DNA from: Dictyostelium discoideum
Taxonomy: Eukaryota
NCBI GenBank assembly: GCA_000004695.1
Contig: CM000155.2
Coordinates: 704,001-768,000, forward strand
Reading direction: 5' to 3'
Length of the DNA: 64,000 nucleotides
In this document: in pieces, positions 14,481 through 15,366 of the stretch
How the letters are laid out: every line of letters starts with the position of its first letter
How positions within the stretch are numbered: position 1 is the stretch's first letter
The notes under the pieces: model-generated
Told to the model about the DNA's origin: nothing
What the model saw: only the letters and a program-made list of their open reading frames with translations
The model's database searches: none
Made by a program: the position numbers and the translations under genes

Positions 14481-14651
14481 ACAACAATCAACAATAATAA
14501 TTAATAAAAATTTATATTATAGTTCACAAAAGTTAAACTGTTTATTTTTTTGCTTTTTAGTTTTTGTGATAGATACGGTAACTGATAACCGGTAAGGGGT
14601 TTCCGGTGTTTAATGTGTATAGGTAATGGTAACCGGATATAAAAGTGGTAG

Positions 14652-15156
14652 TTATTCATTGTCACTCTCATCATTTTCTTCTTCTTGTTCTTCATCTTCT
14701 TCTTCTGATTCACTTTCTCCTTCTGAATCGGTTAGCCCAGTTGTTTCAATTTCTACATCTACACCCCTTGGCACGTCACATAATCTAACTAGCTTACCAT
14801 TAAGTATTCCCGCTTTCATAGTTTTTAATATACGATCACGGTACTCCGGATCCCTATTCCGCCATTCTAAACAATCGTTGTATGTCTGGCAGCCAATTGA
14901 CATTATGGTGGGTTTGGGCGACGTTTGAATATTTTACAATCATCATAGTAATCATTAACTGCCTTGAGATATCCTTCGAAAGTTATCCTATAAATTTCTT
15001 TCATTTTTTTTTACATTCTTTTGTACAGAGTCTATTTATCTCAGGGAATCTATCCTGGTCAAATAATTTATCATCGTATAAAAAGGGGCCCGATTCTTTA
15101 AGGTCTTCTATTGAAAAGCGGTCATGTCCGCATCCACCTACTTTTCTCAACATCAT
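14652..15156 (-). other. Three consecutive short ORFs of 51, 33 and 83 codons on the minus strand, in frames 0, +1 and +2. They are joined by overlapping stop/start codons (ATGA at 15004-15001; TAATG at 14905-14901) in a GC-richer island. Function unknown. Either a frameshifted pseudogene of a small Cys-containing acidic-tailed protein or an unusual polycistron-like unit.
   Basis: The hand translations are MMLRKVGGCGHDRFSIEDLKESGPFLYDDKLFDQDRFPEINRLCTKECKKK*, MKEIYRITFEGYLKAVNDYYDDCKIFKRRPNPP* and MSIGCQTYNDCLEWRNRDPEYRDRILKTMKAGILNGKLVRLCDVPRGVDVEIETTGLTDSEGESESEEEDEEQEEENDESDNE*. GC content is about 40% against under 20% in flanking intergenic DNA. A hairpin ACCGG..CCGGT lies downstream at 14589-14604. 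Confidence 0.3.
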
Positions 15157-15366
15157 TTTGTTGTGTTTAAATTGAGTAAAAATAAAAAAAATAAAAAATA
15201 AAAAAATAAAAAAATAAAAAAATAAAAAACAAATTAAAAAAATAAATTAAAAAAAAAAAATAATAAACACAGAATATAACATTAAGAAAATTTATAATAA
15301 TCAAATGATGTTGTTTTCACTGTTTATTAAATATTTAATTATTTTTTTATTTTTTTATTTTTTTTT

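Follow-up and report, generated by a model that had tools for sequence, protein, structure and literature searches.

A three-frame block in Dictyostelium discoideum is very probably an inactivated copy of a small Dictyostelium gene, broken by two single-base deletions

In some eukaryotic RNA viruses, ribosomes can reinitiate translation where the stop codon of one reading frame overlaps the start codon of the next, as between VP1 and VP2 of caliciviruses and, at a UAAUG, between M1 and BM2 of influenza B; the viral element that promotes reinitiation has a UGGGA core and pairs with 18S rRNA. Slippage is known to occur at long runs of A. Here we analyse a stretch of 64,000 nucleotides of Dictyostelium discoideum (contig CM000155.2, positions 704,001 to 768,000; the whole stretch is hereafter the window), whose minus strand carries at 14560-15175 a block of three ATG-initiated open reading frames (ORFs) of 51, 33, and 83 codons. 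A preliminary description, made from the letters alone, had seen in this block the geometry of translational coupling or termination-reinitiation, and had listed a young pseudogene, an insertion of organellar or foreign DNA, and a sequencing error as alternatives. Our analysis strongly favors one of these: the block is very probably a recently duplicated and inactivated copy of a nuclear gene, small and without introns, that belongs to a Dictyostelium-specific family.

The geometry itself had been described correctly. Both the ORF listing and a reading of the sequence give three minus-strand ORFs with overlapping stop and start codons, and a run of nine A (A9) lies at 15004-15012. The three ORFs are as follows, numbered by the residues of the protein family introduced below.

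15001..15156, minus strand: ORF1, 51 codons; family residues 1-50, with 94% identity to residues 1-47 of the closest relative, P0001 (tblastn).
14903..15004, minus strand: ORF2, 33 codons; family residues 51-83, its ATG being the family-invariant Met51.
14652..14903, minus strand: ORF3, 83 codons; family residues 85 to the end, with an NGKLVRLC motif and an acidic Ser/Glu tail.

At the first junction (ATGA, 15004-15001), the ATG of ORF2 (15004-15002) has TG in common with the TGA of ORF1 (15003-15001). At the second (TAATG, 14905-14901), the TAA of ORF2 (14905-14903) gives its last A to the ATG of ORF3 (14903-14901).

The joined translation of the three ORFs matches six Dictyostelium proteins in a word-indexed protein search. 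The best match is P0001 of D. cf. discoideum (161 aa, E = 1.1e-89, 88% identity), followed by P0002 (159 aa, E = 3e-85) and P0003 of D. firmibasis (162 aa, E = 2e-77), the remaining three being shorter or chimeric gene models. The ORF pattern is, on sequence grounds, not of chance origin, because the joined translation matches real proteins (E = 1e-89). P0001 and P0002 are each encoded by one uninterrupted ORF, of 486 nt (161 aa plus stop) and 480 nt (159 aa plus stop), respectively, and the alignment of the window copy to P0001-P0003 is collinear over the full length, across all three ORFs. Since the joined peptides match known uninterrupted proteins, the block is identified as a frameshifted pseudogene, which is how the preliminary description had proposed to read such a match. 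In exact look-ups, the ORF peptides had no match in the protein collection, a result that the trailing stop codon may affect.

DNA alignments with the paralogues show exactly two frame-changing differences in the window copy, both of them 1-bp deletions. Restoring one A at each site gives a single ORF, whose translation runs MMLRK...ESDNE to the stop codon.

14652..15156, minus strand: disrupted coding region, one 168-codon ORF after restoring one A at each of the two sites.
15004..15012, minus strand: frameshift 1, A9 in place of the A10 of intact paralogues; the run precedes ATGAAAGAA.
14905..14906, minus strand: frameshift 2, one A lost, changing CCACCAATAATG to CCACCATAATG.

The first deletion lies in the longest homopolymer of the repaired gene and turns AAA ATG AAA into AA(A) TGA, which produces the ATGA overlap. 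The run is A10 in the paralogous loci L001, L002, and L007 and A9 in the window copy and in L003. The second deletion forms CCA TAA, and the TAATG overlap arises with the conserved Ile-Met codons; four of four paralogues read CCAATAA(T/A)G at this site. Both apparent start codons are thus Met codons that lie inside the parent gene (ECKKK-M-KEIY and PPI-M). Apart from the two deletions, the window copy differs from the family by one more Met at its N terminus, an acidic tail expanded by 6 residues (an 18-nt insertion in the DNA alignment, within ORF3), and Asp81Asn. Seven residues are private to it in comparison with nine full-length close relatives, including this Asn, at an otherwise invariant position. 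Both the homology and the DNA alignments therefore agree with the young pseudogene that the preliminary description had suggested, one derived from a small protein with Cys residues and an acidic tail and disrupted by two frameshifts, of which one lies in the A9 run.

The block had also been described as a GC-rich island. The contrast with its surroundings is real, the window averaging 21.6% guanine plus cytosine (GC) and the immediate flanks of the block 10-20%, while the figure of about 40% was slightly high: 14560-15175 has 36.5%, with a maximum of 41% in 200-nt sliding windows. The repaired gene has a GC of 36.5% and a GC at third codon positions (GC3) of 27.8%, against 22-33% and 7-23% in the other long ORFs of the window (two AT-rich, probably spurious ORFs lie below these ranges). 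Hence, the block stands at the top of the local coding range.

Could ribosomes translate the three ORFs one after another on a single mRNA, stopping at UGA and UAA and restarting at the AUG that overlaps each stop? The AUGA and UAAUG overlaps are truly present and resemble those of some eukaryotic RNA viruses. Nevertheless, the three pieces are one uninterrupted ORF in the relatives, and the overlaps are by-products of 1-bp deletions beside conserved Met codons that existed beforehand. The breaks also run through one predicted domain and through the core motif of the family, and no TGGGA (the UGGGA core) is found on the coding strand of 14652-15200. To assess how readily such geometry arises, every single base of the repaired gene was deleted in turn, a junction being counted when ORFs of at least 20 codons had a stop overlapping the next ATG. 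Such junctions result from 121 of the 501 single-base deletions (24%), and the overlaps follow from the parental contexts ATGA and ATAATG, so that a functional explanation is not needed. Termination-reinitiation is consequently an exceedingly improbable account of this locus, and the coupling that had been proposed is not upheld. Programmed frameshifting or transcriptional slippage was rejected as well, as the second site (CCACCATAATG) is not slippery and intact homologues are in frame at both sites.

Alternatively, the true locus might carry an intact gene of 168 codons, a single base having been miscalled at each of the two sites. One of the sites is an A9/A10 homopolymer, a classic place for length miscalls. 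An independent assembly, GCA_054883475.1 (L005), was retrieved by exact look-up of the neighboring 773-aa protein. It aligns to window positions 29630-12182 with 99.39% identity over 17.4 kb; the differences amount to 59 mismatches and 18 indels, chiefly in long A/T runs of intergenic DNA, and 16 of 95 long A/T runs differ in length between the two. The differing runs listed are longer intergenic tracts, however, most of at least 12 bases, and the second site is not a homopolymer at all. Over 14000-15600 the two assemblies are identical, including the A9 run and CCACCATAATG, and the annotated L005 has no gene call at the locus. Because a non-identical assembly carries both deletions, the sequences indicate that both are very probably real, and an assembly or sequencing error, which had been listed among the alternatives, becomes very unlikely.

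The homology extends beyond the coding region, and the duplicated unit comprises about 800 bp.

14462..15267, minus strand: whole duplicated unit; it starts with T-rich upstream DNA, continues through the disrupted coding region, and ends with a conserved 3' flank of about 190 bp.
14462..14651, minus strand: conserved noncoding 3' flank of the family unit, aligning downstream of the stop codons of L001 and L002; relatively rich in GC (39%).
14211..14461, minus strand: remnant of a third tandem gene for a major facilitator superfamily (MFS) transporter (UNC93-like), made of the first exon from about codon 5 and part of an intron, fused to a 3' flank motif; the gene body is deleted.

Blastn alignments to L001, L002, and L003 run from window positions 15267, 15260, and 15246 to 14461 or 14491 with 81-86% identity, the flanks being otherwise without match. 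The 5' limit of the unit is approximate (15246-15267) because the DNA there is low-complexity and T-rich. At the 3' junction, ...TTATTACTC meets AAGAAGAGAGTG at 14462/14461, abutting about codon 5 of the third-MFS remnant. None of the paralogous loci (L001-L004 and L007) is syntenic with the window, and the extent of homology between them varies from about 300 to 1080 bp, a pattern consistent with the duplication of DNA segments rather than with a transposon, whose ends would be fixed. A transposable element was accordingly rejected, given this variable extent and the absence of a Pfam domain, of a tRNA gene in the window, and of a second copy of the element within the window; tRNA and Rfam scans of the window found nothing and gave no hint of a tRNA-targeted retroelement.

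Two UNC93-like MFS genes stand in tandem next to the unit, which lies between the stop codon of the second one and the third-MFS remnant. Its placement between an MFS 3' flank and a deleted third MFS copy had been noted from the letters, and the repeat matches and alignments bear it out. In D. firmibasis, a VTT-domain gene, two MFS genes, and an actin-domain gene follow one another at the corresponding locus (L006), and the syntenic interval, of 710 bp against 1950 bp in the window, contains no homologue of the family. This gives weight to the idea that the block is an insertion: either the D. discoideum lineage gained the copy or D. firmibasis lost it. A search for the syntenic locus of D. 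cf. discoideum with the 773-aa neighbor protein yielded no close orthologue, as WD40 proteins swamped the matches. An origin from organellar or foreign DNA finds no support, as the relatives are all nuclear Dictyostelium proteins wherever the source was looked up.

The order of events that we infer begins with the copying of a DNA segment of about 800 bp, with the gene and its short flanks, into the spacer downstream of the second tandem MFS gene. This would have taken place once the D. discoideum lineage had separated from D. firmibasis, and the copy would have landed right against the 5' end of the degenerating third MFS copy. Two single-base deletions would then have broken the frame, one by slippage in the A10 run and the other by removing an A from CCAATAATG; an internal Met codon, already present and with suitable bases around it (ATGA and ATAATG), follows directly after each. 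As the shifted frame stops on the internal ATG in both cases, a mechanical ORF scan yields three ORFs with overlapping stops and starts. No special translation mechanism is implied, and at most short fragments of a single-domain protein would be made, so that the copy presumably lacks function.

The divergence between copies agrees with such a history, as far as the sequences and their small counts allow: synonymous divergence (dS) between the window copy and its paralogues is 0.09-0.13, and the ratio of nonsynonymous to synonymous divergence (dN/dS) is 0.39-0.68, compared with 0.28 between two intact paralogues, as would be expected of a young copy under relaxed constraint. Four points weigh on the other side. 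The dN/dS values, based on 8-23 substitutions, are not by themselves proof of relaxed constraint. The strain of L005 may be close to the source of the window, in which case the shared deletions would be real but not necessarily fixed in the species. The product of ORF1, or an N-truncated product corresponding to ORF3, may be made. Finally, two junctions arise from 2.8% of all deletion pairs in the repaired gene and are thus only about 3% likely under uniformly placed deletions, a figure that is low but not compelling; it becomes 17% once the A10 hotspot is allowed for, this being the share of second deletions that yield a second junction when the first lies in A10.

The parent family consists of single-exon genes for proteins of about 155-165 residues with the motifs C-x3-C-K-x-K-M-K and NGK-x-VRLC, the acidic Ser/Glu tail being a feature of the window copy's own subfamily. 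A wide-family alignment of 10 sequences has only six invariant residues (C43, C47, M51, G120, R124, and C126). All six are encoded by the window copy (LCTKECKKKM and NGKLVRLC), over different frames, however. Met51 is invariant within the most conserved motif, and the break between ORF1 and ORF2 therefore cuts the core of the protein. An AlphaFold model built on this alignment (predicted local distance difference test [pLDDT] 79, predicted template modeling score [pTM] 0.67) is a single compact domain, in which the same cut falls within a long helix spanning residues 45-72. The confidently predicted fold found no match in the PDB and appears to have no relative there. Pfam scans of the three peptides, their concatenation, and eight family members gave nothing above threshold.

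An exhaustive profile search over 1.84 billion proteins gave 19 hits and revealed distant family members in D. discoideum and D. purpureum. The source was looked up for all of these but seven (P0036, P0039, P0040, P0043-P0045, and P0048), among which P0036 and P0040 are long proteins, each matching in seven short stretches. Relatives come from nuclear contigs of Mb scale in D. discoideum, D. cf. discoideum, D. dimigraforme, D. firmibasis, and D. purpureum; cluster look-ups assign several copies to each genome of the first four species, D. discoideum being represented by more than one strain. Close members include KAM9987557.1 (ACTFIZ_000056), KAM9961708.1 (ACTFIR_004566), and RB653_003079 of D. 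firmibasis; distant ones include DDB_G0288733, DDB_G0268832, and DDB_G0293518 of strain AX4 and DICPUDRAFT_77767 of D. purpureum. The close subfamily is represented in AX4 solely by a 70-aa fragment, DDB_G0268956, whose first residue is the Met that also opens ORF3; neither this fragment nor ORF3 gave a gene on record in exact look-ups. Literature searches on five AX4 gene identifiers of the family returned no paper.

Beside the family gene of L001, about 300 bp downstream and convergent to it, a small Arg/Glu-rich ORF (6777-6941, minus strand) is 91% identical to DDB_G0288421 of AX4 (57 aa). The gene model P0030 (180 aa) fuses a family gene with this ORF, which is absent beside the window copy.

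Sequence comparison indicates that decay is not restricted to the window copy within the family. Locus L003 (7850-8336, D. discoideum ACTFIR, GCA_054859385.1) has A9 and a 2-bp deletion 20 nt upstream leading to an in-frame TAA, and L004 is a 5'-truncated paralogue. The annotated 111-aa product of L003 begins at the invariant Met51, the start shared by a cluster of 111-aa products. The idea that all short annotated family products are real truncations was nevertheless rejected, because L007 (2851-3315, D. cf. discoideum ACTFIY, GCA_054859205.1) contains an intact 154-aa family ORF behind a 104-aa model (P0029) and its start was under-called. In view of the A9 of L003, the A10 run may be a recurrent slippage hotspot or a weak point of assemblies.

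These observations bear on the possibility that the window locus is partly functional, either through some activity kept by a truncated product of ORF3 (or ORF2) or through RNA-polymerase slippage on A9 restoring the first frame in part of the transcripts. Long A runs do promote slippage, a second paralogue (L003) also has A9, DDB_G0268956 starts at the Met of ORF3, and the cluster of 111-aa products starts at Met51. Yet the second frameshift lies outside the slippery run, so that the full-length protein cannot be restored; truncated products would lack the invariant C-x3-C motif; and the case of P0029 makes short annotations weak evidence. We hold residual function of this kind to be highly improbable. 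A bolder proposal, in which the A10 before Met51 acts as a recurrent on/off mutational switch in a fast-turning-over Dictyostelium-only family, with copies repeatedly silenced, N-truncated, or rescued by slippage, appears very doubtful too; A9 is carried by two of the five family copies examined. An inactivated duplicate is thus still how the window copy is best read.

The third-MFS remnant is context only and lies outside the pseudogene. Positions 14319-14421 match the 5' exon of the two intact MFS genes (repeat family D12, also at 16681-16783 and 18634-18736), and the 3' flank motif AATTAAATATTTAATAAACAGTGAAA is an exact 26-nt repeat (14211-14236 and 15315-15340). No third MFS copy is found at the syntenic D. 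firmibasis locus. The intact genes, on the minus strand at 15366-16769 and 17325-18723, are tandem UNC93-like MFSD11 paralogues with about 68% DNA identity; since the pair is kept in D. firmibasis (L006, 10001-13436), the MFS duplication is old. A word-indexed search with the last MFS exon returned no annotated D. discoideum protein and only short Logan contigs at 100% identity. Further along, 13243-13691 is densely packed with short tandem repeats, of periods 9 and 15, and its strand skew is extreme, the GC skew reaching 0.89 and the AT skew falling to -0.83; the array lies where L005 has an annotated 229-aa gene and probably encodes a low-complexity repeat.

The consequences for translation biology are small, as the operon-like coupling in a eukaryote is only apparent, an artefact that two frameshifts produce. 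As regards annotation, the locus should be labelled a pseudogene, and several short "hypothetical proteins" of the family, such as DDB_G0268956 of AX4, are probably fragments or under-called starts of the same type of gene. The parent family, uncharacterized, multicopy, restricted to Dictyostelium, and subject to birth-and-death dynamics, could merit a study of its own.

In comparison with the reinitiation systems of caliciviruses and influenza B, the locus shares the AUGA and UAAUG geometry at the sequence level. In contrast with these, its pieces are fragments of one protein that are not conserved as separate ORFs, and it is a nuclear, nonviral duplicate where the UGGGA element was not found. 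With its own family it shares 78-88% amino acid identity over the aligned region, collinearity over the whole length, the C-x3-C-K-x-K-M-K and NGKLVRLC motifs, the acidic tail, an atypically high GC, and the conserved 3' flank. It differs from the other members in that two 1-bp deletions split it into three frames and in that its site is empty in D. firmibasis. Functional members have one intronless ORF of about 155-165 codons and the window copy has pieces of 51, 33, and 83, which places it among the pseudogene members. The closest likeness is with ordinary duplicated (nonprocessed) frameshift pseudogenes: a copy of a multicopy gene with short flanks and low dS to its paralogues, 1-bp deletions that disrupt the frame, the longest homopolymer being the site of one, and an annotated assembly in which no gene is called. 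From these the locus differs in nothing material, the position of both deletions just before internal ATGs being a cosmetic difference only.
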